Assembly: GCA_000092065.1 (NCBI GenBank)
Contig: CP000594.1
Strand: one strand, 5' to 3'
Length of the DNA: 64,000 nucleotides
From: Ostreococcus lucimarinus
Lineage: Eukaryota
The notes beneath the pieces were generated by a model, which saw only the letters and a list, made by a program, of their open reading frames with translations, did no database searches and was not told where the DNA came from. The stretch's first letter is position 1. The number at the start of each line of letters is the position of its first letter. Below, piece by piece: positions 14,642-45,095 of the stretch. Position numbers and translations under genes: made by a program.

Positions 14642-15478
14642 TCAGCGTCGGGCGCGACGCACGCGATCGCGCATTCTGAACGCGCGGTCGTCCGGCGACG
14701 CGCGCTCGAAGGCGACGTCGCGAGGCGCGTCGACGACGGCGCGGCGGACGCGCTCGGGACGCTCGGGAAGCGGCGGCGCGGGTCTGCGCGCGGCGTCGAC
14801 GTCTAAACCGGCGAGCAAACGCGTGAGCTCTCGCGTGCTCACGGGACGCTCGCCCGGGGCGCGCGTCATGCACACGGCGTCGACGCCGTCGGCGTAGTAA
14901 CCGCGACGCGAGCCGCGCGTCTCGAAGCCGCACTTTTCGTACATGGCCAACGCGGCGACGTTGGTCGCGCGCACCTCCAACGCGGCCGCGTTCGTCGGCT
15001 GCAGACCTAACATGGCTTTTAACACGCGCGCGCCCAGGCCTCGGCGTCGCAGCGATCGCCTGGTCGCGATTTGCGTCACCTGCGTCTCGCCCGCCACGCA
15101 GACGCAAAATCCAATCGCGCCGACGACGCGCGCGTCCGATTCGCTCGCCTCGCCCGCCGCCGGCACCGCCACCAGCGCTCTGTGCGTCTTCGACGTCTCC
15201 GCGTCGACGCTTCGCTCGAGATCGTCTCGCACCGTCGCCTCGCTCCAATCGACGTCGGCGTCCGCGCACAGCGCCGTCGCCGCGTCGAAGTCGCGTCGAC
15301 GCGCCGGTCGAATCGCCCACGCCGCGACGCCTTCGCACAGCGCGTCCGTCGCGCTCGACGACGCGTCGCGAGAAGACGCGTTTCGCGACGCGTCACGTCC
15401 CGTCCGCGTCCGCGTCCGCGTCGCGCCGCGAATCGTCGCGAAACGCGGCGTCGTCGCGCCACATTCTCGAATCTTCAT
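14642..15478 (-). CDS. GNAT-family N-acetyltransferase (RimI/NAT-like)
   Basis: 278 aa from ATG at 15476-15478. Acetyl-CoA motif A (RRRGLGARVL) and the RimI-like motif LEVRATNVAALAMYEKCGFETRGSRRGYYADGVDAVCM. The upstream part of the 647-aa track ORF is low-complexity and rejected. Confidence 0.6.
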   Translation of the reverse strand: MKIRECGATTPRFATIRGATRTRTRTGRDASRNASSRDASSSATDALCEGVAAWAIRPARRRDFDAATALCADADVDWSEATVRDDLERSVDAETSKTHRALVAVPAAGEASESDARVVGAIGFCVCVAGETQVTQIATRRSLRRRGLGARVLKAMLGLQPTNAAALEVRATNVAALAMYEKCGFETRGSRRGYYADGVDAVCMTRAPGERPVSTRELTRLLAGLDVDAARRPAPPLPERPERVRRAVVDAPRDVAFERASPDDRAFRMRDRVRRARR

Positions 15479-15622
15479 TCGTCGCGCGCGCGCGCGCGCG
15501 CGCCGCGTCCGCGTCGCCGGCGCGCGTCCGCGCGCTCGAGCTTCGCAGGTCTCTGTACGCGCGTCCGCGGACGCGCACGAGCGCGCGCTCGTTCGCGGGC
15601 GACGCGATGATGACGACGCGCG

Positions 15623-15937
15623 ATGCGACGCCGGCGATTCGATTCGCGCCGCACAATGCCGCGCGACGACGACGACGACGCGCGACGACGCGCGGACGCG
15701 CGCGCGACGGTGTCCGGCGAGCGACGCGACGGCGCGCGTCGCCGCGCGCGCTCGAGGTCGAGCGAGGGACGACGACGACGGTCGAGGTCGGATTCGCGAC
15801 GACGACGACGACGACGCGACGACGCGAGCGACGACGCGCGCGACGACGACGCGCGCGAGCGACGACGCGCGCGACGGTCTCGGTCTCGGTCTCGGTCGCG
15901 ATCGAGGGACGACGCGCGACGAAGGCGACGACGACGG

Positions 15938-15972
<35 letters not shown>

Positions 15973-17639: not shown

Positions 17640-20600
17640 TCAGGCTGGCGTCGGTACGGCCGAAATCCAGCGCGCGTTGGCGAGCTCTGCGAGGTGGTTG
17701 TGAAACGACGTGTCCGCGTAGAGCGGGAAAGAAGGCGACGTCAAGCTCGTGTACTTGAGATCGCCGTCGACGTAGAACTCAATCGCGCCCGCGTCGTTCA
17801 CGATCACTTGGAAAGTCTCACCCGCGACGAAGACGCCGGCATCGAACTTGTTCACGCCCTTCTCTTGGAATCGGACCTGATTGCCGTTGCAGAACACGGC
17901 GTAGTCGATGGTCGTTTGGCTGTGGCCCGAGGGCGTGCTCGACAAGCCAAACTGCAAGTGCCTGTTGTCGGTGCGCATGCAGTCGCCGGAAATGCCGCGA
18001 ATCTCGTCGCCGACTTTCGTGATGGCGCGCGCGCTGTACGCGCCTCTTGCCCAGTTGTTCCCGCCTTGAGTACGTTTGAGGTAGCCCTGTTTGCCGTCCG
18101 TCGTCATGCCCTGCGAAAGTCCGACCCACTCGATGAGATCCAAGTCGTTCGCACCCTCGTGGACAGTCTGTATCCAGGAGACTCGAGAGAAAGACGCGCC
18201 TGCAGTGTTGAAGCGCGCGGTGGCGTAGAGCGGGAAGGCAGGCGCCTCATCAGACGTCGCAAACGCCGCGCCATCCTTGTAGTACGTGACGACGCCCGAG
18301 TCGAGCACGACCACTTGGAACGTCTCACCGACGAAGTAATCGCCAAAGTCGCCGTCGCGCACGACGCCGTGTTCGGAGATGCGGATCACGCCGTTGTCGC
18401 ACACAATGCCGAAGTCGACCACCTCGTCGACGGAGTTCGTCGAGCCAGAGTTCAAGCCAATCATCATGGACTTGTCCGTTTGGTCGCAATCCGCGGAGAC
18501 GCCACGCACTTCGTCGCCGATCTTCGTGATGGCACGTTTGCTCGTGGCGCCGACGTTCCAGCCACTGCCTGCCATTGTGCGCGTCACTTGGCCCGCGGAA
18601 GACTCGACGCCTTCCGCGTCTTCAAACTCCATGGCCGCCAAGTCGTTCGCGCCCTTGACAACCTTGTGAACCCAGCGCGCGTTGGCCAGCTCTGCGAGGT
18701 GGTTGTGAAACGACGTGTCCGCGTAGAGCGGGAAAGAAGGCGACGTCAAGCTCGTGTACTTGAGATCGCCGTCGACGTAGAACTCAATCGCGCCCGCGTC
18801 GTTCACGATCACTTGGAAAGTCTCACCCGCGACGAAGACGCCGGCATCGAACTTGTTCACGCCCTTCTCTTGGAATCGGACCTGATTGCCGTTGCAGAAC
18901 ACGGCGTAGTCGATGGTCGTTTGGCTGTGGCCCGAGGGCGTGCTCGACAAGCCAAACTGCAAGTGCCTGTTGTCGGTGCGCATGCAGTCGCCGGAAATGC
19001 CGCGAATCTCGTCGCCGACTTTCGTGATGGCGCGCGCGCTGTACGCGCCTCTTGCCCAGTTGTTCCCGCCTTGAGTACGTTTGAGGTAGCCCTGTTTGCC
19101 GTCCGTCGTCATGCCCTGCGAAAGTCCGACCCACTCGATGAGATCCAAGTCGTTCGCACCCTCGTGGACAGTCTGTATCCAGGAGACTCGAGAGAAAGAC
19201 GCGCCTGCAGTGTTGAAGCGCGCGGTGGCGTAGAGCGGGAAGGCAGGCGCCTCATCAGACGTCGCAAACGCCGCGCCATCCTTGTAGTACGTGACGACGC
19301 CCGAGTCGAGCACGACCACTTGGAACGTCTCACCGACGAAGTAATCGCCAAAGTCGCCGTCGCGCACGACGCCGTGTTCGGAGATGCGGATCACGCCGTT
19401 GTCGCACACAATGCCGAAGTCGACCACCTCGTCGACGGAGTTCGTCGAGCCAGAGTTCAAGCCAATCATCATGGACTTGTCCGTTTGGTCGCAATCCGCG
19501 GAGACGCCACGCACTTCGTCGCCGATCTTCGTGATGGCACGTTTGCTCGTGGCGCCGACGTTCCAGCCACTGCCTGCCATTGTGCGCGTCACTTGGCCCG
19601 CGGAAGACTCGACGCCTTCCGCGTCTTCAAACTCCATGGCCGCCAAGTCGTTCGCGCCCTTGACAACCTTGTGAACCCAGCGCGCGTTGGCCAGCTCTGC
19701 GAGGTGGTTGTGAAACGACGTGTCCGCGTAGAGCGGGAAAGAAGGCGACGTCAAGCTCGTGTACTTGAGATCGCCGTCGACGTAGAACTCAATCGCGCCC
19801 GCGTCGTTCACGATCACTTGGAAAGTCTCACCCGCGACGAAGACGCCGGCATCGAACTTGTTCACGCCCTTCTCTTGGAATCGGACCTGATTGCCGTTGC
19901 AGAACACGGCGTAGTCGATGGTCGTTTGGCTGTGGCCCGAGGGCGTGCTCGACAAGCCAAACTGCAAGTGCCTGTTGTCGGTGCGCATGCAGTCGCCGGA
20001 AATGCCGCGAACCTCGTCGCCGACTTTCGTGATGGCGCGCGCGCTGTACGCACCTCTTGCCCAGTTGTTCCCGCCTTGAGTACGTTTGAGGTAGCCCTGT
20101 TTGCCGTCCGTCGTCATGCCCTGCGAAAGTCCGACCCACTCGATGAGATCGAGATCCCGTGAACCTTTATGAACAACTTTTATCCACTTCACATTTTCGA
20201 GGTGTCCTCCACCTTCATCAACGTATCCATCGGCAAACAATGGGAAGATCGGTTCTCTGCTACTATTGTAGACAGAATGTCCTTCTTTATAATAGTGAAC
20301 GATACCCTCGTCATTAAATGCGACCTGGAACGTTTCTCCCGCGAGGTATGTTCCGATCGTGGCCATAAGCTCACCGTCTTCGTAAACTTCCATTGTTCCG
20401 GCATTGCAACCAACGGCATACTCAATAGCATCGCCATCCGAGGGTGTGTAATGAGCGCTGCTCAAACCGAATATCATTTTCGTTGTTGTGTCACTGCAAT
20501 CCGCAGAAATACCGCGAACTTCGTCATAAATTTTAGTTACGGCGCGTTTACTTGTCGAGCGCACAATGTCCATTTTTTCAGGTGTAACCGGCAAGTACAC

Positions 20601-23600
20601 GTCGCCGTGTGACACTTCACATCGCTGGACTGTTTCAAAGTCCATCATGTTTAGCCAATGCATGTGGCTTAGCTTCGCACCTTCGGTGAAGATTCGAGCC
20701 TGGGAGTAAAGAGGGAATTCAACACTTTTAGTGCTGACATGAAGAACATTACCATTTTGCAGATACTCGATGACACCATGCTCGTTGATGACGATAGAAA
20801 ATGTCTCTCCAGGGCTGTACGCCGAAGGAGGCTCGACAATGCGCTCGTGCCTTTGGAAGGCTGACGCATTGTGTTGGTCATTTATGTATTCGGGTGAATC
20901 ACTATCCAATGAATCAAGTGCCAAGTCTGGCGAAGTACCAAGATGTGTTGAAGGCGGTGGACCTTGAGCATCGTTCTCCGGGGTCGGGACTTGAAGTTGG
21001 CCTTCAATCCCATGTGGTGTATTCGGCTCGGGACGTCGATGTGGCTCGATTGTTTTGATGACAACTCCATCTTCAAGGAGACGCAACGTTCCGGCATCAC
21101 AGTATATCGCAAAGGACAGGTTCGTCTGCGCCGGAGCAGTAGCGGTTTCATTCGCAGCGGTTTCATTCAACTGAGCATCTTGATCACCTTGCACCATGAG
21201 TCCAAACATCATCTGTGACTTGTTGTCGGAACAATCGGCAGACACGCCTTTTTTGGTGTCATTCCAACCGCGAATTGATGAACGACTCGTTGCGAAAGCA
21301 AGTAATGAAGCTTCTTCGATGCGTTTTGCCGCCTCTTCACTCAACACGTGAGCGAGAGATCCAGGTGTAAGAGTCGCATTCTCAGGTAGAAGGAACTCAA
21401 CAGGCTCAAGGTCATCGGCACCTTCAATGATTCGGTAAACCCAGCGCGCGTTGGCCAGCTCTGCGAGGTGGTTGTGAAACGACGTGTCGGCGTAGAGCGG
21501 GAAAGAAGGCGACGTCAAGCTCGTGTACTTGAGATCGCCGTCGACGTAGAACTCAATCGCGCCCGCGTCGTTCACGATCACTTGGAAAGTCTCACCCGCG
21601 ACGAAGACGCCGGCATCGAACTTGTTCACGCCCTTCTCTTGGAATCGGACCTGATTGCCGTTGCAGAACACGGCGTAGTCGATGGTCGTTTGGCTGTGGC
21701 CCGAGGGCGTGCTCGACAAGCCAAACTGCAAGTGCCTGTTGTCGGTGCGCATGCAGTCGCCGGAAATGCCGCGAATCTCGTCGCCGACTTTCGTGATGGC
21801 GCGCGCGCTGTACGCGCCTCTTGCCCAGTTGTTCCCGCCTTGAGTACGTTTGAGGTAGCCCTGTTTGCCGTCCGTCGTCATGCCCTGCGAAAGTCCGACC
21901 CACTCGATGAGATCCAAGTCGTTCGCACCCTCGTGGACAGTCTGTATCCAGGAGACTCGAGAGAAAGACGCGCCTGCAGTGTTGAAGCGCGCGGTGGCGT
22001 AGAGCGGGAAGGCAGGCGCCTCATCAGACGTCGCAAACGCCGCGCCATCCTTGTAGTACGTGACGACGCCCGAGTCGAGCACGACCACTTGGAACGTCTC
22101 ACCGACGAAGTAATCGCCAAAGTCGCCGTCGCGCACGACGCCGTGTTCGGAGATGCGGATCACGCCGTTGTCGCACACAATGCCGAAGTCGACCACCTCG
22201 TCGACGGAGTTCGTCGAGCCAGAGTTCAAGCCAATCATCATGGACTTGTCCGTTTGGTCGCAATCCGCGGAGACGCCACGCACTTCGTCGCCGATCTTCG
22301 TGATGGCACGTTTGCTCGTGGCGCCGACGTTCCAGCCACTGCCTGCCATTGTGCGCGTCACTTGGCCCGCGGAAGACTCGACGCCTTCCGCGTCTTCAAA
22401 CTCCATGGCCGCCAAGTCGTTCGCGCCCTTGACAACCTTGTGAACCCAGCGCGCGTTGGCCAGCTCTGCGAGGTGGTTGTGAAACGACGTGTCCGCGTAG
22501 AGCGGGAAAGAAGGCGACGTCAAGCTCGTGTACTTGAGATCGCCGTCGACGTAGAACTCAATCGCGCCCGCGTCGTTCACGATCACTTGGAAAGTCTCAC
22601 CCGCGACGAAGACGCCGGCATCGAACTTGTTCACGCCCTTCTCTTGGAATCGGACCTGATTGCCGTTGCAGAACACGGCGTAGTCGATGGTCGTTTGGCT
22701 GTGGCCCGAGGGCGTGCTCGACAAGCCAAACTGCAAGTGCCTGTTGTCGGTGCGCATGCAGTCGCCGGAAATGCCGCGAATCTCGTCGCCGACTTTCGTG
22801 ATGGCGCGCGCGCTGTACGCGCCTCTTGCCCAGTTGTTCCCGCCTTGAGTACGTTTGAGGTAGCCCTGTTTGCCGTCCGTCGTCATGCCCTGCGAAAGTC
22901 CGACCCACTCGATGAGATCCAAGTCGTTCGCACCCTCGTGGACAGTCTGTATCCAGGAGACTCGAGAGAAAGACGCGCCTGCAGTGTTGAAGCGCGCGGT
23001 GGCGTAGAGCGGGAAGGCAGGCGCCTCATCAGACGTCGCAAACGCCGCGCCATCCTTGTAGTACGTGACGACGCCCGAGTCGAGCACGACCACTTGGAAC
23101 GTCTCACCGACGAAGTAATCGCCAAAGTCGCCGTCGCGCACGACGCCGTGTTCGGAGATGCGGATCACGCCGTTGTCGCACACAATGCCGAAGTCGACCA
23201 CCTCGTCGACGGAGTTCGTCGAGCCAGAGTTCAAGCCAATCATCATGGACTTGTCCGTTTGGTCGCAATCCGCGGAGACGCCACGCACTTCGTCGCCGAT
23301 CTTCGTGATGGCACGTTTGCTCGTGGCGCCGACGTTCCAGCCACTGCCTGCCATTGTGCGCGTCACTTGGCCCGCGGAAGACTCGACGCCTTCCGCGTCT
23401 TCAAACTCCATGGCCGCCAAGTCGTTCGCGCCCTTGACAACCTTGTGAACCCAGCGCGCGTTGGCGAGCTCTGCGAGGTGGTTGTGAAACGACGTGTCCG
23501 CGTAGAGCGGGAAAGAAGGCGACGTCAAGCTCGTGTACTTGAGATCGCCGTCGACGTAGAACTCAATCGCGCCCGCGTCGTTCACGATCACTTGGAAAGT

Positions 23601-24137
23601 CTCACCTGCGACGAAGACGCCGGCATCGAACTTGTTCACGCCCTTCTCTTGGAATCGGACCTGATTGCCGTTGCAGAACACGGCGTAGTCGATGGTCGTT
23701 TGGCTGTGGCCCAAGGGCGTGCTCGACAAGCCAAACTGCAAGTGCCTGTTGTCGGTGCGCATGCAGTCGCCGGAAATGCCGCGAATCTCGTCGCCAACTT
23801 TCGTGATGGCGCGCGCGCTGTACGCGCCTCTTGCCCAGTTGTTCCCGCCTTGAGTACGTTTGAGGTAGCCCTGTTTGCCGTCCGTCGTCATGCCCTGCGA
23901 AAGTCCGACCCACTCGATGAGATCCAAGTCGTTCGCGCTTTCCACGGTCCCTTGTCTCGCCACCGTGCGCACGATCGTCGGTCTCTCTCCTAACCCGACG
24001 CCCAGCGCGCTCAGCGCCAGCCCCGCGCACGCCGCCCGCGCGCCCCATCGCCAGATTCCACCGGAAACCTCCTCGCGACGCCTCTCCGACCGCAACAACG
24101 GCGTCGCCTCATCCCTCGACGTCCACCTCGCCGCCAT
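17640..24137 (-). CDS. giant membrane-anchored tandem-repeat protein (~2165 aa): ~12 SPRY/ConA-like beta-sandwich domains
   Basis: Continuous ORF; the first ATG is 24135-24137 (the track start 24200 is TTG). An N-terminal cytoplasmic tail precedes the signal-anchor IWRWGARAACAGLALSALGVGLG. Six near-identical 335-aa units follow, each an A+B subdomain pair. The A subdomain reads …WARGAYSARAITKVGDEIRGISGDC…IDYAVFCNGNQVRFQEKG…GETFQVIVNDAGAIEFYVDGDL…SFPLYADTSF. The B subdomain reads …WNVGATSKRAITKIGDEVRGVSADC…VDFGIVCDNGVIRISEHG…GETFQVVVLDSGVVTYYKDGAAF…AFPLYATARF. A divergent central segment carries two degenerate copies and a P/acidic linker. Confidence 0.6.
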   Translation of the reverse strand: MAARWTSRDEATPLLRSERRREEVSGGIWRWGARAACAGLALSALGVGLGERPTIVRTVARQGTVESANDLDLIEWVGLSQGMTTDGKQGYLKRTQGGNNWARGAYSARAITKVGDEIRGISGDCMRTDNRHLQFGLSSTPLGHSQTTIDYAVFCNGNQVRFQEKGVNKFDAGVFVAGETFQVIVNDAGAIEFYVDGDLKYTSLTSPSFPLYADTSFHNHLAELANARWVHKVVKGANDLAAMEFEDAEGVESSAGQVTRTMAGSGWNVGATSKRAITKIGDEVRGVSADCDQTDKSMMIGLNSGSTNSVDEVVDFGIVCDNGVIRISEHGVVRDGDFGDYFVGETFQVVVLDSGVVTYYKDGAAFATSDEAPAFPLYATARFNTAGASFSRVSWIQTVHEGANDLDLIEWVGLSQGMTTDGKQGYLKRTQGGNNWARGAYSARAITKVGDEIRGISGDCMRTDNRHLQFGLSSTPSGHSQTTIDYAVFCNGNQVRFQEKGVNKFDAGVFVAGETFQVIVNDAGAIEFYVDGDLKYTSLTSPSFPLYADTSFHNHLAELANARWVHKVVKGANDLAAMEFEDAEGVESSAGQVTRTMAGSGWNVGATSKRAITKIGDEVRGVSADCDQTDKSMMIGLNSGSTNSVDEVVDFGIVCDNGVIRISEHGVVRDGDFGDYFVGETFQVVVLDSGVVTYYKDGAAFATSDEAPAFPLYATARFNTAGASFSRVSWIQTVHEGANDLDLIEWVGLSQGMTTDGKQGYLKRTQGGNNWARGAYSARAITKVGDEIRGISGDCMRTDNRHLQFGLSSTPSGHSQTTIDYAVFCNGNQVRFQEKGVNKFDAGVFVAGETFQVIVNDAGAIEFYVDGDLKYTSLTSPSFPLYADTSFHNHLAELANARWVYRIIEGADDLEPVEFLLPENATLTPGSLAHVLSEEAAKRIEEASLLAFATSRSSIRGWNDTKKGVSADCSDNKSQMMFGLMVQGDQDAQLNETAANETATAPAQTNLSFAIYCDAGTLRLLEDGVVIKTIEPHRRPEPNTPHGIEGQLQVPTPENDAQGPPPSTHLGTSPDLALDSLDSDSPEYINDQHNASAFQRHERIVEPPSAYSPGETFSIVINEHGVIEYLQNGNVLHVSTKSVEFPLYSQARIFTEGAKLSHMHWLNMMDFETVQRCEVSHGDVYLPVTPEKMDIVRSTSKRAVTKIYDEVRGISADCSDTTTKMIFGLSSAHYTPSDGDAIEYAVGCNAGTMEVYEDGELMATIGTYLAGETFQVAFNDEGIVHYYKEGHSVYNSSREPIFPLFADGYVDEGGGHLENVKWIKVVHKGSRDLDLIEWVGLSQGMTTDGKQGYLKRTQGGNNWARGAYSARAITKVGDEVRGISGDCMRTDNRHLQFGLSSTPSGHSQTTIDYAVFCNGNQVRFQEKGVNKFDAGVFVAGETFQVIVNDAGAIEFYVDGDLKYTSLTSPSFPLYADTSFHNHLAELANARWVHKVVKGANDLAAMEFEDAEGVESSAGQVTRTMAGSGWNVGATSKRAITKIGDEVRGVSADCDQTDKSMMIGLNSGSTNSVDEVVDFGIVCDNGVIRISEHGVVRDGDFGDYFVGETFQVVVLDSGVVTYYKDGAAFATSDEAPAFPLYATARFNTAGASFSRVSWIQTVHEGANDLDLIEWVGLSQGMTTDGKQGYLKRTQGGNNWARGAYSARAITKVGDEIRGISGDCMRTDNRHLQFGLSSTPSGHSQTTIDYAVFCNGNQVRFQEKGVNKFDAGVFVAGETFQVIVNDAGAIEFYVDGDLKYTSLTSPSFPLYADTSFHNHLAELANARWVHKVVKGANDLAAMEFEDAEGVESSAGQVTRTMAGSGWNVGATSKRAITKIGDEVRGVSADCDQTDKSMMIGLNSGSTNSVDEVVDFGIVCDNGVIRISEHGVVRDGDFGDYFVGETFQVVVLDSGVVTYYKDGAAFATSDEAPAFPLYATARFNTAGASFSRVSWIQTVHEGANDLDLIEWVGLSQGMTTDGKQGYLKRTQGGNNWARGAYSARAITKVGDEIRGISGDCMRTDNRHLQFGLSSTPSGHSQTTIDYAVFCNGNQVRFQEKGVNKFDAGVFVAGETFQVIVNDAGAIEFYVDGDLKYTSLTSPSFPLYADTSFHNHLAELANARWISAVPTPA
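17659..20157. repeat. tandem array, 1005-bp period (~2.5 units), near-identical copies (coding, C-terminal half of giant protein)
   Basis: The motif cccagcgcgcgttggccagctctgcgaggtggttgtgaaacg recurs at 17659/18671/19676. The antisense track ORFs 17818/18823/19828 are identical apart from single substitutions. Confidence 0.9.
21440..23936. repeat. second tandem array of the same 1005-bp unit (~2.5 units) (coding, N-terminal half of giant protein)
   Basis: Same motif at 21443/22445/23450. The antisense track ORFs 21592/22597/23602 are identical to those in array 1. Confidence 0.9.
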
Positions 24138-24393
24138 CGTCGCGCCCGTCTCCCTCACGCGCGCGCGAAATCGATTCAACACCTCCTCACGGCACCGCAA
24201 ACGTCACGAGTCGACGCGCGTCGCCTCGTTCTTTCGCGCGCGCTCGCACCGCGTGGGTCCCGAGACCGGTCGCGCGAGTTATTTCTCCGCCCCGCTCACT
24301 CGCTCGTTCGACGCGCGCCTCGCCGTCGCGGCCGCGCGTCGCTGAATGCCGCGCGCGCCCGGTCCGCGCTGATTGTGCTGACTCGTCAAAGGT

Positions 24394-24480
24394 GTTACGC
24401 GAGTGGGTCGTCGCTTGAGTCATGAACCCTCGATGGTTACGCGAGTGGGTCGTCGCTTGAGTCATGAACCCTCGATGGTT
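24394..24480. repeat. 42-bp perfect tandem duplication (2 copies + 3 nt)
   Basis: gttacgcgagtgggtcgtcgcttgagtcatgaaccctcgatg occurs at 24394..24435 and 24436..24477. It lies in the 5' flank of the glucosidase II beta gene and produces the spurious ATG at 24464 used by the track ORF. Confidence 0.9.
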
Positions 24481-26318: not shown

Positions 26319-27974
26319 ATGTCGCGCGTCGCGACGCCCGCGCCGCGCGCGCCGCTTCGCTCGACGCGCGCCTCGCGATGCGCGCGCGCGCGTCGTCCCT
26401 CTCGCGCGACGACGACGCGATGCGCGCCCGCGCGCGACGCGACGACGCGTTCGATGACGCGCGGGCGACGCGCGGGCGCGCTCGCGCCGGCGCCGATGAC
26501 GCGCGCGGGCGCGGCGACGCGGCGACGCGCGCTGCAGACGACGGAGGACACGCCCGTGAGCGCGGAGGCGAGGGCGGAGGCGTACGATTGGCGCGCGCAC
26601 TGGTACCCGGCGGCGTACGTCGCCGACGTGGAGAAGGACGCGCCGCTGACGTTTACGCTCCTGGGCGAACCGCTGGTGTTCTGGCGGGACAAGAGCGGCG
26701 AGATGCGCTGCGTCGCGGATAGGTGCCCGCACAGGTTGGTACCGCTGAGCGAAGGACGCGTCAACGAGACGGGTGAGCTCGAGTGCGGGTATCACGGGTG
26801 GACGTTTACGGGAGAGGGTAAGTGCACGTCCATTCCGCAAATCGAGCAAGGGACGGGTTTGGAGACGGCTTTGAAGTCTCCGAGATCGTGCGTCGCGGCG
26901 TACCCGACGAAAGAGGCGCAAGGCATGCTTTGGGTGTATCCGACCTCGATGGATAAAGCGCCGGCGACGCTGCCAGATTTGCCGCTAATCCCAGAGTACG
27001 ACGACCCGGAGTGCGTGTGTCAAGACATCTTTCGGGATCTTCCCATGGATTGGGCGACTTTGCTTGAAAACGTCATGGATGTTAGTCATGTGCCGTTTAC
27101 GCATCACAACAGCGTTGGTAAGCGAGAAAATGCGACGCCAGTGAATTTGGAATTGGCGAGCGCCGCGGGCGTCACGGCGAACGGATTCGAAGGGATATGG
27201 AAGGAAGGTCCGAGGAAAGGTAAATATGGGTCTCAATACACCGAGTTCAAAGCACCGACGTTAATGCGCCACACGCTCAAGACGGAGGCTTTCACGACGC
27301 TCACCGTCGTGTACGCGGTGCCGACGACACCCGGCCGATGCCGACTTATGGCGCGATTTCCATTCATCTTCAAATCGGCGTTGCCGCGATTCTTTTTCGG
27401 TCTTTACCCGCAATGGTTCTCGCACACGAATCAAAATGCAATTTTAGAGGATGACCAAATCTTCTTGCACAAGCAAGAGCGATTGATCGAGGTTGAGCAA
27501 AAAGAAGGCAAGTCATACGCGCAGTCGTGCTACATGCCCACCAAGGCAGACGTCTACGTTTCGGCGTTCCGCAAGTGGATTGTCGACGTCGCCGGCGGCG
27601 GTCCAGCGTGGCCGAAGGATATGCCCACTGATTTGCCACCGCAAGAAACCACGCGCGAGGCTTTGCTCGATCGCTACCATTCGCACACGATAAACTGCAA
27701 GTCGTGCGCCAGCGCTTTGGCGAAAATCGGCAAGGCGCGAAAGGCGCTTCGCGTGCTCACCTTTGTCGCTCTCGCCGCTGCCGTGGCGACTTTTGCGCGA
27801 GCAGTACCGTTGAAGTACACGATCGCCTTGTCGGTACTATCCGCCGCGTGCGCTTTGGTTCGCGAGAAACTCGGCGCGTTTGCCGCGAAGATGAAAATCG
27901 GGCCGTATCCGCCACCGCGCAGACCGCCATCCATGATGGAGGCAGCGTTGCAACAAGCGCGAATCGCGTTTTAA
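26319..27974 (+). CDS. Rieske [2Fe-2S] non-heme iron oxygenase of the PAO/Tic55/PTC52 family, plastid transit peptide
   Basis: Rieske CPHRLVPLSEG…CGYHGWTF. Mononuclear iron site NVMDVSHVPFTHH. C-terminal CxxC (INCKSCASAL) and two C-terminal TM helices. N-terminal ~75 aa is R/A/T/S-rich. Confidence 0.8.
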   Translation: MSRVATPAPRAPLRSTRASRCARARRPSRATTTRCAPARDATTRSMTRGRRAGALAPAPMTRAGAATRRRALQTTEDTPVSAEARAEAYDWRAHWYPAAYVADVEKDAPLTFTLLGEPLVFWRDKSGEMRCVADRCPHRLVPLSEGRVNETGELECGYHGWTFTGEGKCTSIPQIEQGTGLETALKSPRSCVAAYPTKEAQGMLWVYPTSMDKAPATLPDLPLIPEYDDPECVCQDIFRDLPMDWATLLENVMDVSHVPFTHHNSVGKRENATPVNLELASAAGVTANGFEGIWKEGPRKGKYGSQYTEFKAPTLMRHTLKTEAFTTLTVVYAVPTTPGRCRLMARFPFIFKSALPRFFFGLYPQWFSHTNQNAILEDDQIFLHKQERLIEVEQKEGKSYAQSCYMPTKADVYVSAFRKWIVDVAGGGPAWPKDMPTDLPPQETTREALLDRYHSHTINCKSCASALAKIGKARKALRVLTFVALAAAVATFARAVPLKYTIALSVLSAACALVREKLGAFAAKMKIGPYPPPRRPPSMMEAALQQARIAF

Positions 27975-43427: not shown

Positions 43428-45095
43428 ATGGCGCGCGATCGCCCCGCGGACGTCGCCGGGCGCAGCGAGAGCGAGCGTAAGGTGCTGGCGATCGCGGACA
43501 TCGTCGCGCAGCTCGTCGCGCGCGACGCGAGCGATGGATTCATGAACTTGAACTCGGTCAAAAACGCGACGAGCCGCAAGTACAAGCTTTCGAAGGCGCC
43601 GAAGCTCACCGAACTCATCGCGGCGGTGCCGGTGGAACATCGCGATCAGTTGCTGCCGAAACTCAGGGCGAAACCGGTGCGAACGGCGAGCGGGGTGGCG
43701 GTGGTGGCGGTGATGAGTAAACCGCATCGGTGCCCGCACATAGCGACGACGGGCAACGTGTGCGTGTACTGCCCGGGAGGACCCGATAGTGATTTTGAGT
43801 ACTCCACGCAGTCTTACACTGGATATGAACCGACGTCGATGCGAGCGATACGGGCGAGGTACGATCCGTACGCGCAGTCTCGAGGACGGGTGGACCAGTT
43901 GCGACGGCTGGGACACGCGGTGGACAAGGTGGAGTTCGTGCTCATGGGAGGGACGTTCATGTCGCTGCCGATCGATTATAGAGATTTTTTCATCAGAAAT
44001 TTGCACGATTCGCTCAGTGGGGCGAGCTCGTCGTGCGTGGATGAGGCTGTGAAGGCGTCGGAGCAGAGTAGGACGAAGTGCGTGGGGTTGACGATTGAGA
44101 CGCGGCCGGATTATTGTCAGTCACCGCATTTGCGACAGATGTTGTCGTACGGGTGCACGCGATTGGAAATCGGTTTGCAGAGCATCTATGAAGACGTCGC
44201 GCGCGACACCAATCGTGGGCACACCGTGGCGGCGGTGCAAAAGTGTTTTGAATTAGCCAAAGACGCGGGATTTAAAGTCATCGCGCACATGATGCCGGAT
44301 TTGCCAAACGTGGGCATGGAGCGCGATTTGGAGTCGTTTCGAGAATTTTTCGAGTCGCCTGATTTTAGAACAGATGGCTTGAAGCTTTATCCTACGCTCG
44401 TCATTCGAGGTACAGGATTGTACGAGTTGTGGCGCACCGGCAAGTATAGAAATTACCACCCCGAGCGCTTGGTGGATTTAGTCGCGCGAGTGCTCGCGCT
44501 CGTCCCACCCTGGGTCCGGGTCTATCGCGTCCAGCGCGATATTCCCATGCCTCTCGTCACCGCGGGCGTGGAGAAGGGTAACCTTCGTGAGCTCGCGATG
44601 GCGCGCATGGCGGATCTAGGCTTAAGATGTCGCGACGTGCGCACGCGCGAAGTCGGCTTACAAGATATTCATAACCGCGTCGCTCCGACGCACGTTGAAC
44701 TCGTCCGTCGCGACTACGTCGCCAATGGCGGGTGGGAGACATTCTTATCTTACGAAGATCCGCGACAAGACATCTTGGTAGGACTCTTGCGTCTTCGCAA
44801 GTGCGGTCGAACGGCCGCCAAGACGTCGCCTGCGCTCAAGGGCAAATGTTCCATGGTTCGCGAGCTTCACGTCTACGGCACCGCCGTCGCCGTGCACTCG
44901 CGACACAAGGGTCGCTTTCAACACCGCGGGTATGGCACTTTACTCATGCGCGAGGCCGAGCGCATCGCTCGCGAAGAACACGGCTCGAGCAAGCTCGCCG
45001 TGATTTCCGGCGTCGGCACGCGACACTACTATCGCAAGCTCGGATACGAATTAGAAGAAACCTACATGGTGAAGCATCTCTCCGCGAACGAGTAG
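43428..45095 (+). CDS. ELP3: Elongator complex protein 3 (radical-SAM + GNAT acetyltransferase)
   Basis: Radical SAM block [17 protein letters not shown]. Highly conserved ELP3 blocks throughout, with a C-terminal GNAT ([22 protein letters not shown]). Confidence 0.9.

Follow-up and report, generated by a model that had tools for sequence, protein, structure and literature searches.

Here, we describe a gene of Ostreococcus lucimarinus that encodes a giant protein of 12 homologous modules, organized as two arrays of near-identical tandem repeats around a divergent, single-copy core. The gene is located on the minus strand, at positions 17640-24137, of a 64,000-nucleotide stretch of contig CP000594.1 (assembly GCA_000092065.1; hereafter the window), which is nuclear DNA of O. 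lucimarinus CCE9901. Comparison with related genomes showed that the two arrays evolve in concert and that the number of repeat units varies between strains or assemblies. In addition, structure prediction placed the modules among the SPRY-like beta-sandwiches of the concanavalin A (ConA) superfamily.

The locus represents a real O. lucimarinus gene. A preliminary description, made from the letters of this DNA, had proposed a single minus-strand open reading frame (ORF) of ~6.5 kb, and the ORF listing of the window bore this out: 17640..24200 (-) forms one uninterrupted frame of 2186 codons, with 2165 amino acids (aa) encoded from the ATG. The computed chance of a stop-free run of 2186 codons at 61% GC is ~1e-29.5. 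The deduced product matches XP_001421376.1 (UniProt A4S716) of O. lucimarinus CCE9901 residue for residue, an entry of the same length publicly labelled ‘predicted protein’.

From the N-terminus, the protein consists of a 30-aa charged tail, a hydrophobic segment, a 17-aa spacer, the 12 modules of ~165 aa each and 8 last residues (ISAVPTPA) behind the final module of the right array (Table 1). The modules are ordered A1 B1 A2 B2 A3 C D A4 B4 A5 B5 A6, giving six A, four B, one C and one D in the arrangement (AB)2A-C-D-(AB)2A; FPL[YF] and the other motif blocks occur 12 times in the 2165-aa protein, following this same module order. Several features proposed initially were thereby recovered, namely about 12 related subdomains of ~165 aa, all of the recurring motif blocks and a divergent pair between the arrays, which corresponds to the single-copy modules C and D. 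The assumed six units of 335 aa had to be revised to four complete AB units and two additional A modules (2.5 + 2.5 periods). Similarly, the Pro/acidic stretch at aa ~1031-1106, previously taken for a linker, is not inter-domain: it is an insertion within module C, in the loop that connects the ‘E-x-G’ strand to the ‘GETF’ strand. At the matching loop of module C, the orthologue of a sister species (contig L001) has a (GPGPQ)n insertion.

A and B modules share 39% identity. Each module contains exactly two conserved Cys (C58 and C88 in module A2), and the modules account for 24 of the 26 Cys in the protein in this way, the anchor and module D contributing one more each. N-x-S/T sequons are confined to the core, with seven in module C and one in module D (8 in total). 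The hydrophobic segment reaches a Kyte-Doolittle (KD) value of 1.34, all other segments staying at or below about 1.1, and the ExxxLL motif of the tail (DEATPLL) is kept in the sister-species orthologues.

Table 1 Features of the repeat gene in the window (all on the minus strand; GC3, GC content at third codon positions).
Feature	Position	Strand	Residues and remarks
Whole coding sequence with stop codon	17640..24137	-	2165 aa; start ATG at 24137
N-terminal tail	24048..24137	-	aa 1-30; acidic dileucine-type motif EATPLL, aa 10-15
Sole hydrophobic segment	23988..24047	-	aa 31-50, WGARAACAGLALSALGVGLG; putative signal anchor, possibly signal peptide
Left array A1-B1-A2-B2-A3	21420..23936	-	aa 68-906; 2.5 periods of 1005 bp
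Module A2, modelled unit	22425..22931	-	predicted 13-strand beta-sandwich
Divergent module C	20643..21419	-	aa 907-1165; single copy; GC3 0.45
Pro/acidic low-complexity insertion inside module C	20820..21047	-	~76 aa, aa ~1031-1106
Divergent module D	20163..20642	-	aa 1166-1325; single copy; GC3 0.44
Right array A4-B4-A5-B5-A6	17643..20162	-	aa 1326-2165; 2.5 periods

At the DNA level, both arrays follow a common period of 1005 bp, with copies at 17664/18669/19674 and 21438/22443/23448 that are 99-100% identical, confirming the period and the near base-identity noted before. In CCE9901, the four B copies are identical over 498 nucleotides (nt), and the A copies show 0-9 differences per 471 nt, with the edge copies A1 and A4 being the most divergent; between the left and the right array, 28 of 2511 nt differ. 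The sister species represented by L001, a 531-kb lagoon contig, shows the same plan, consisting of the tail with DEATPLL, the anchor, (AB)4A, C, D and (AB)3A. Here, the period amounts to 1020 bp and the copies are mutually identical across both arrays, except for one indel-bearing copy, whereas DNA identity between the L001 unit and the CCE9901 unit is only ~77%. In a closer lineage sharing the syntenic locus (L052/P0216), A copies are at least 99.3% identical among themselves; compared with CCE9901, aa identity drops to 87-89% for A and 96.7% for B. The shared two-array plan, combined with uniformity within and divergence between genomes, indicates that the two-array layout is older than the splits of these lineages and that homogenization is ongoing, also between the two arrays. 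While the preliminary description had considered recent amplification or concerted evolution, the comparison of CCE9901, L052 and L001 thus showed that the arrays evolve in concert.

The repeat status is also reflected in base composition. Within 17643-24137, GC3 reaches 0.79-0.82 in the repeated A/B modules compared to 0.44-0.45 in the single-copy modules C/D, and L001 (1769-9622) displays a similar jump (0.70-0.75 in A/B versus 0.41-0.51 in C/D). Synonymous divergence between species, expressed as the proportion of differing synonymous sites (pS), is lower in A/B (0.43-0.55) than in C/D (0.80-0.85). Both observations are consistent with GC-biased gene conversion in the arrays.

AB units of the left and right array were then counted at the lucimarinus-type syntenic locus across assemblies. 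CCE9901 and contig P0214 contain 2 + 2 units, L002 3 + 2, P0212 at least 3 + 3 and P0210 at least 4 + 3; L052 has four on the left, a 100-N gap (15732-15831) standing in place of its module D and its right array. The count of AB units consequently varies between strains or assemblies, and the locus combines near-identical, in-frame DNA repeats with a strain-variable repeat number. Of the initial suspicion that the copy number is collapsed or variable, the second part holds true. CCE9901 itself is not obviously collapsed: the independent contig P0214 repeats its 2.5 + 2.5 layout, other assemblies of the same population having more units.

In metagenome contigs, frameshifts split the gene into 2-4 called genes (L001 1769-11635, L002 8913-16044). 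Together with clustering at 90%, these split gene calls scatter the family into fragments, some of which carry odd names such as ‘IspG/GcpE’ or ‘ribosomal protein S4E’. Two one-module versions, P0007 on a short contig and P0138 on a short-read MEGAHIT k141 contig, were not accepted as true short alleles, repeat collapse being more likely. A further single-module protein, P0158 (L004 314-913, 199 aa), has a signal-peptide-like N-terminus; the products of the genes next to it match O. tauri proteins exactly (plastocyanin OUS48726.1). P0158 may be a true relative with one module, belonging to O. tauri-type genomes, or else result from short-read collapse, and its cluster contained no NCBI protein of O. 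tauri.

To describe selection on the gene, we used the ratio of non-synonymous to synonymous substitution rates (dN/dS). Compared with L001, this ratio amounts to 0.34 in A and 0.32 in B, whose synonymous sites, unlike those of C and D, are not saturated. Compared with the L052 lineage, it is highest in A (0.73; 23 non-synonymous and 9 synonymous changes), followed by B (0.38), the first part of C (0.27), the tail and anchor (0.19) and the end of C with the start of D (0.13); in this comparison, A differs from the remaining regions (Fisher's exact p = 0.018). One third of the A-module substitutions between lineages (6/18) fall at positions 12-33 of the compared segment, the N-terminal loop region. 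Judging from these substitution patterns, the gene is functional and under purifying selection, with module A as its fastest-evolving part.

Next, we considered the fold of the modules. An AlphaFold2 model of module A, using a 16-row alignment of algal modules as input, was all-beta with 13 strands and reached a predicted local distance difference test (pLDDT) of 92.7 and a predicted template modelling score (pTM) of 0.89. The nearest structural neighbours were SPRY domains, including those of SPRYD3 (2yyo), RanBP9/10, TRIMs (TRIM67), Ash2L and SPSB, which share just 8-16% identity with the module. In fold score, they ranked above L-type lectins as well as above the GH16 glucanases and PL7 alginate lyases among the fold neighbours. 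The model thus displays the bent beta-sandwich of SPRY type as well as the jelly-roll sandwich common to LamG, L-type lectins, GH16 and PL7, and the modules are predicted to be SPRY-like (ConA-superfamily) beta-sandwiches. In a three-module A-B-A model, the domains were retained (mean pLDDT 81, pTM 0.43), and the two 8-aa linkers remained below a pLDDT of 50. The low linker values and the pTM speak against confident packing between modules and rather for an organization like beads on a string.

Sequence profiles gave a different picture. Pfam SPRY (PF00622) was absent at E<=10 in scans of the whole protein and of 16 single modules, PDB profile searches returned no SPRY chain and nothing relevant for the algal profile, and an NCBIfam scan yielded no match to the module. 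Laminin_G_3 (PF13385) reached an E-value of 1.9e-11 on the whole protein from summed weak repeats, with no stretch passing alone; on single modules, it was weakly matched in 4/16 cases (best E 0.0056). Neuralized gave a faint Pfam match only. Pfam matches of the whole protein to HasA, Enolase_N, PAP2 and U79_P34 were discarded as artefacts of weak matches summed over identical repeats, none of them containing a passing stretch that would agree with the fold. The SPRY/ConA-like fold assumed beforehand is hence supported by the AlphaFold2 model and its fold neighbours, but not by any SPRY sequence profile; the accompanying statement that no specific family was recognized agrees with the sequence-level result, as Pfam, NCBIfam and PDB gave nothing significant per domain.

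Despite the lack of a Pfam or NCBIfam model covering the module in any member tested, the module belongs to a large family. At E<=1e-3, an hmmsearch with the algal module profile retrieved 4,246 representatives, of which 1,740 remained at E<=1e-10; the impression of a tiny family, based on a word-indexed search (11, then 2 proteins), was overturned by this exhaustive profile search. Bacterial proteins with signal peptides predominate among the relatives; most are giants, reaching 6.7 kaa, in which 4-25 modules follow each other in tandem. For multi-copy proteins, profile E-values go down to 1e-200, single domains scoring 50-100 bits. Sorting domains of the type IX secretion system (T9SS) were present in both bacterial relatives checked, one of them named as a Cytophagales T9SS cargo; MCP4521096.1 is an example of such a cargo from Bacteroidota. 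A pattern scan of GTDB genomes, for which a narrower bacterial alignment was used, detected the module in Sorangium, many Acidobacteriota, Bacteroidota, Verrucomicrobiia and Gammaproteobacteria.

The bacterial-type module also occurs in viruses. It matches PHROG 19691/26502 (‘virion structural protein’), structural proteins of the Cellulophaga phages phiST, phi13:1 and phi19:2, a protein of Pseudomonas phage Rollin and proteins of Nitrosopumilaceae spindle-shaped viruses. The best fold matches in BFVD were the structural protein of phi13:1 and a protein from an uncultured marine phage that bears the label ‘ash2’, with template modelling scores of 0.79-0.81 at 22-24% identity for the top matches. 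Against PDB, the broad profile matched the phage ‘Structural protein’ 26gp_Q (E = 6e-5); this solved protein of 620 aa (26gp_Q / 26la / 44nx) contains one copy of the bacterial-type module. The algal unit alone matched no PHROG model, only the bacterial-type module finding phage proteins, and gave no tblastn match against GenBank phages; likewise, the algal profile found no relatives among IMG/VR viral contigs, prasinoviruses included.

Homology to the bacterial and phage repeat domain is detectable at profile level over the whole module. The joint alignment has a common core of W..GA.S, GLS, IDYA, (I/V)YE.G, GD.F.V, YTS and P..PL, with invariant columns S, G, E, G and S. Specific to the algal clade are the RAITK-GDE-RG-S-DC block and the Cys pair, which is largely missing in bacterial relatives. 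A small insertion (V/I-R/x-G-V/I-S) is shared by the algal clade and a few other, probably eukaryotic sequences, a Tara metatranscriptome sequence among them. One apparent archaeal protein, P0225 (VW982_08110, ‘Candidatus Poseidoniales archaeon’), is a partial sequence of 649 aa on a 1.9-kb contig with 66% identity to the algal C-D core, and almost certainly stems from a picoalgal contig that was mis-binned into an archaeal metagenome-assembled genome.

The neighbouring genes are of an ordinary eukaryotic kind. Genes for a KH-domain protein and a GNAT protein are located on one side, and genes for glucosidase II beta (PRKCSH), COX17 and pheophorbide a oxygenase (PaO) on the opposite one; related lineages retain this gene order in two further contigs (L002, L052). 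In contrast to these KH/PRKCSH flanks, the L001 orthologue is flanked by NAD kinase and TBCC/globin genes and a collapsed copy in L003 by cobW and SBF genes, showing that the position of the gene is not conserved between these Ostreococcus lineages. Elsewhere in the window, the ELP3 ORF (43428-45095) is identical to XP_001421200.1. At 24394-24480, the 5' end of the divergently transcribed PRKCSH contains a perfect 42-bp tandem duplication (2.1 copies), which is present as a single copy in the near-identical contig L002. Imperfect, CG-rich low-complexity tandem repeats with periods of 3-44 bp were found within the GNAT and PaO ORFs (15272-15971 and 26321-26553). Two antisense ORFs mirror the arrays, 17694-20162 (+) with 822 aa and 21468-23993 (+) with 841 aa. 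They were rejected as genes on the grounds that the substitution pattern agrees with the minus frame, and are most likely mirror by-products of the GC-rich repeats.

What might be the role of this protein? We consider it probable, with considerable room for doubt, that it is a single-pass, N-terminally anchored, multivalent recognition or adhesion protein of the cell surface or secretory pathway, built from copy-variable SPRY-like modules. The N-terminal hydrophobic segment would serve as the anchor and the short tail, with its ExxxLL sorting-type motif, would remain in the cytosol. The extracytoplasmic part would form a flexible chain of 12 independently folded modules acting as ligand-binding units for glycans or proteins. 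Unequal crossing-over and gene conversion may homogenize the ABA arrays, keeping the copies near-identical and altering the number of AB units, so that reach and valency of the chain would differ between strains. We infer topology, surface location and binding function from several lines of evidence. A hydrophobic segment at the N-terminus normally causes the chain behind it to be translocated, and the conserved ExxxLL must be cytosolic to be read by adaptor complexes; both argue for an extracytoplasmic array, as do the Cys pair that bacterial relatives largely lack, the N-glycosylation sequons in C and D and the fact that sequence relatives of known context are all secreted or virion proteins. 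Ligand binding is suggested by the fold neighbours, which are binding domains and lectins. The presumed adhesion or recognition role, put forward already in the preliminary description, likewise draws support from the secreted bacterial and the phage virion relatives.

Some observations weigh against this interpretation. The hydrophobic segment is weak (KD 1.34) and Ala/Gly rich, and its flanking charges are balanced (+2/+2), which makes the proposed topology tentative and would also allow a cleaved signal peptide. Eukaryotic SPRY domains are usually cytosolic or nuclear, the A and B modules are devoid of N-glycosylation sequons, and ExxxLL suggests endosomal or vacuolar trafficking over stable residence at the surface. 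Furthermore, part of the copy-number calls derives from metagenome assemblies with frameshifts or gaps. A more far-reaching version, which we regard as rather unlikely, would see the protein as an exposed recognition molecule shaped by an arms race, for example as an attachment target or decoy for prasinoviruses or in cell-cell (mating) recognition; the fast A module and the variable repeat number would then be products of this arms race. It would also make the protein the first characterized eukaryotic member, and a founding one, of a large, uncurated family of extracellular SPRY-like proteins including bacterial T9SS cargo and phage virion proteins. The absence of relatives among prasinoviruses and viral contigs provides no direct link to virus interaction.

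Other explanations place the module chain in different compartments. If ExxxLL directed cycling between Golgi, endosome and vacuole, the lumenal ConA-fold modules could bind cargo glycans, making the protein an endomembrane lectin or cargo receptor, akin in function to the L-type lectins ERGIC-53, VIP36 and Emp46/47. This appears improbable, as known cargo lectins have one carbohydrate-recognition domain instead of 12-18 near-identical, strain-variable modules, SPRY domains outscore L-type lectins as fold neighbours, and rapid concerted evolution with a fast A module is more typical of exposed surface proteins. Comparable, minor weight is given to a secreted matrix protein, in which a cleaved signal peptide would release the chain as a soluble extracellular or cell-coat protein. 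Such a fate would fit the short, weakly hydrophobic, Ala/Gly-rich segment with small residues (GLG/SGG) behind it, the missing C-terminal anchor and the putative O. tauri-type relative P0158, with its short signal-peptide-like N-terminus and without the tail motif. However, cleaved signal peptides do not usually have a 30-aa charged N-region with a motif such as DEATPLL conserved across species, which suggests a tail that functions in the cytosol. Alternatively, the N-terminus could be translocated, or the segment might not be a transmembrane helix at all, leaving the modules as cytosolic platforms for protein interaction. The closest structural neighbours (SPRYD3, RanBP9/10, TRIMs and Ash2L) are indeed cytosolic or nuclear, and the charge balance around the segment is neutral. 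Nevertheless, a cytosolic scaffold seems quite unlikely: SPRY membership is missing at the sequence level, the sequence relatives are secreted bacterial and virion proteins, the pair of conserved Cys in each module is a peculiarity of the algal clade, and the hydrophobic segment would normally translocate what follows it.

The two remaining explanations are very improbable. Near-identical 1-kb repeats are difficult to assemble, short-read contigs reduce the gene to one module (P0007, P0138) and some long-read contigs contain frameshifts, all of which could point to a duplication made by the assembly or to a non-functional repeat expansion in a decaying pseudogene. Yet the same ordered layout is found in the finished CCE9901 sequence, in independent metagenome contigs and in two species, the 6.5-kb frame is open and dN/dS is ~0.3. 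An array of carbohydrate-active enzymes with GH16- or PL7-like catalytic jelly rolls, hinted at by the GH16 glucanases and PL7 alginate lyases among the fold neighbours, can hardly be reconciled with the lower fold scores compared to SPRY, with a module of 165 aa that is smaller than GH16/PL7 catalytic domains, or with the absence of any match to a Pfam GH or PL family and, in a regular-expression search of the 2165 aa, of the GH16-type ExDxxE motif.

Both the gene model, present in public databases, and the fold were already known. Our literature search, which covered SPRY domains, ConA-like folds and tandem repeats in Ostreococcus as well as SPRY domains in connection with T9SS, returned nothing on A4S716. 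In the literature searched, we found no description of the module family, large and without a Pfam/NCBIfam model, of a eukaryotic SPRY-like array that is probably extracellular or of the two-array, concerted and copy-variable organization. Ostreococcus is a naked cell ~1 µm across, whose surface proteins are largely unknown, and a long, copy-variable and rapidly homogenized chain of presumed binding modules represents an obvious candidate for surface recognition. At the same time, the gene provides a clean natural case of concerted evolution within one eukaryotic gene, with repeat status tracking the shift of GC3 from 0.44 to 0.82. As the 165-aa module counts thousands of members among bacteria, phages and marine eukaryotes, its curation would annotate many giant ‘hypothetical’ surface proteins.

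The algal protein can be compared with several known systems. SPRY/B30.2 proteins are cytosolic or nuclear adaptors with usually one copy of the domain and, rarely, three as in ryanodine receptors, whereas the algal array is likely extracytoplasmic, comprises 12 tandem copies and has two Cys per module. L-type lectin cargo receptors (ERGIC-53, VIP36, Emp46/47) are of type I topology and have one lectin domain each, which binds mannose in a Ca2+-dependent manner, and no sequence relationship to the algal protein was detected. With the bacterial and phage repeat domain, there is true sequence homology, including shared core motifs and tandem arrays of 4-25 copies; the bacterial relatives have signal peptides, joined by T9SS tails where this was checked, in contrast to the N-terminal anchor of the alga. 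Tandem-repeat surface adhesins with intragenic copy-number variation are known from yeast (Flo/Als), streptococci (alpha-C/Rib) and staphylococci (Bap/Sas). Like these, the algal gene has near-identical, in-frame DNA repeats of strain-variable number with the outermost copies being most divergent, but it differs from them by an unrelated fold and lineage, by a two-module AB repeat and by two arrays placed around a unique C-D core.

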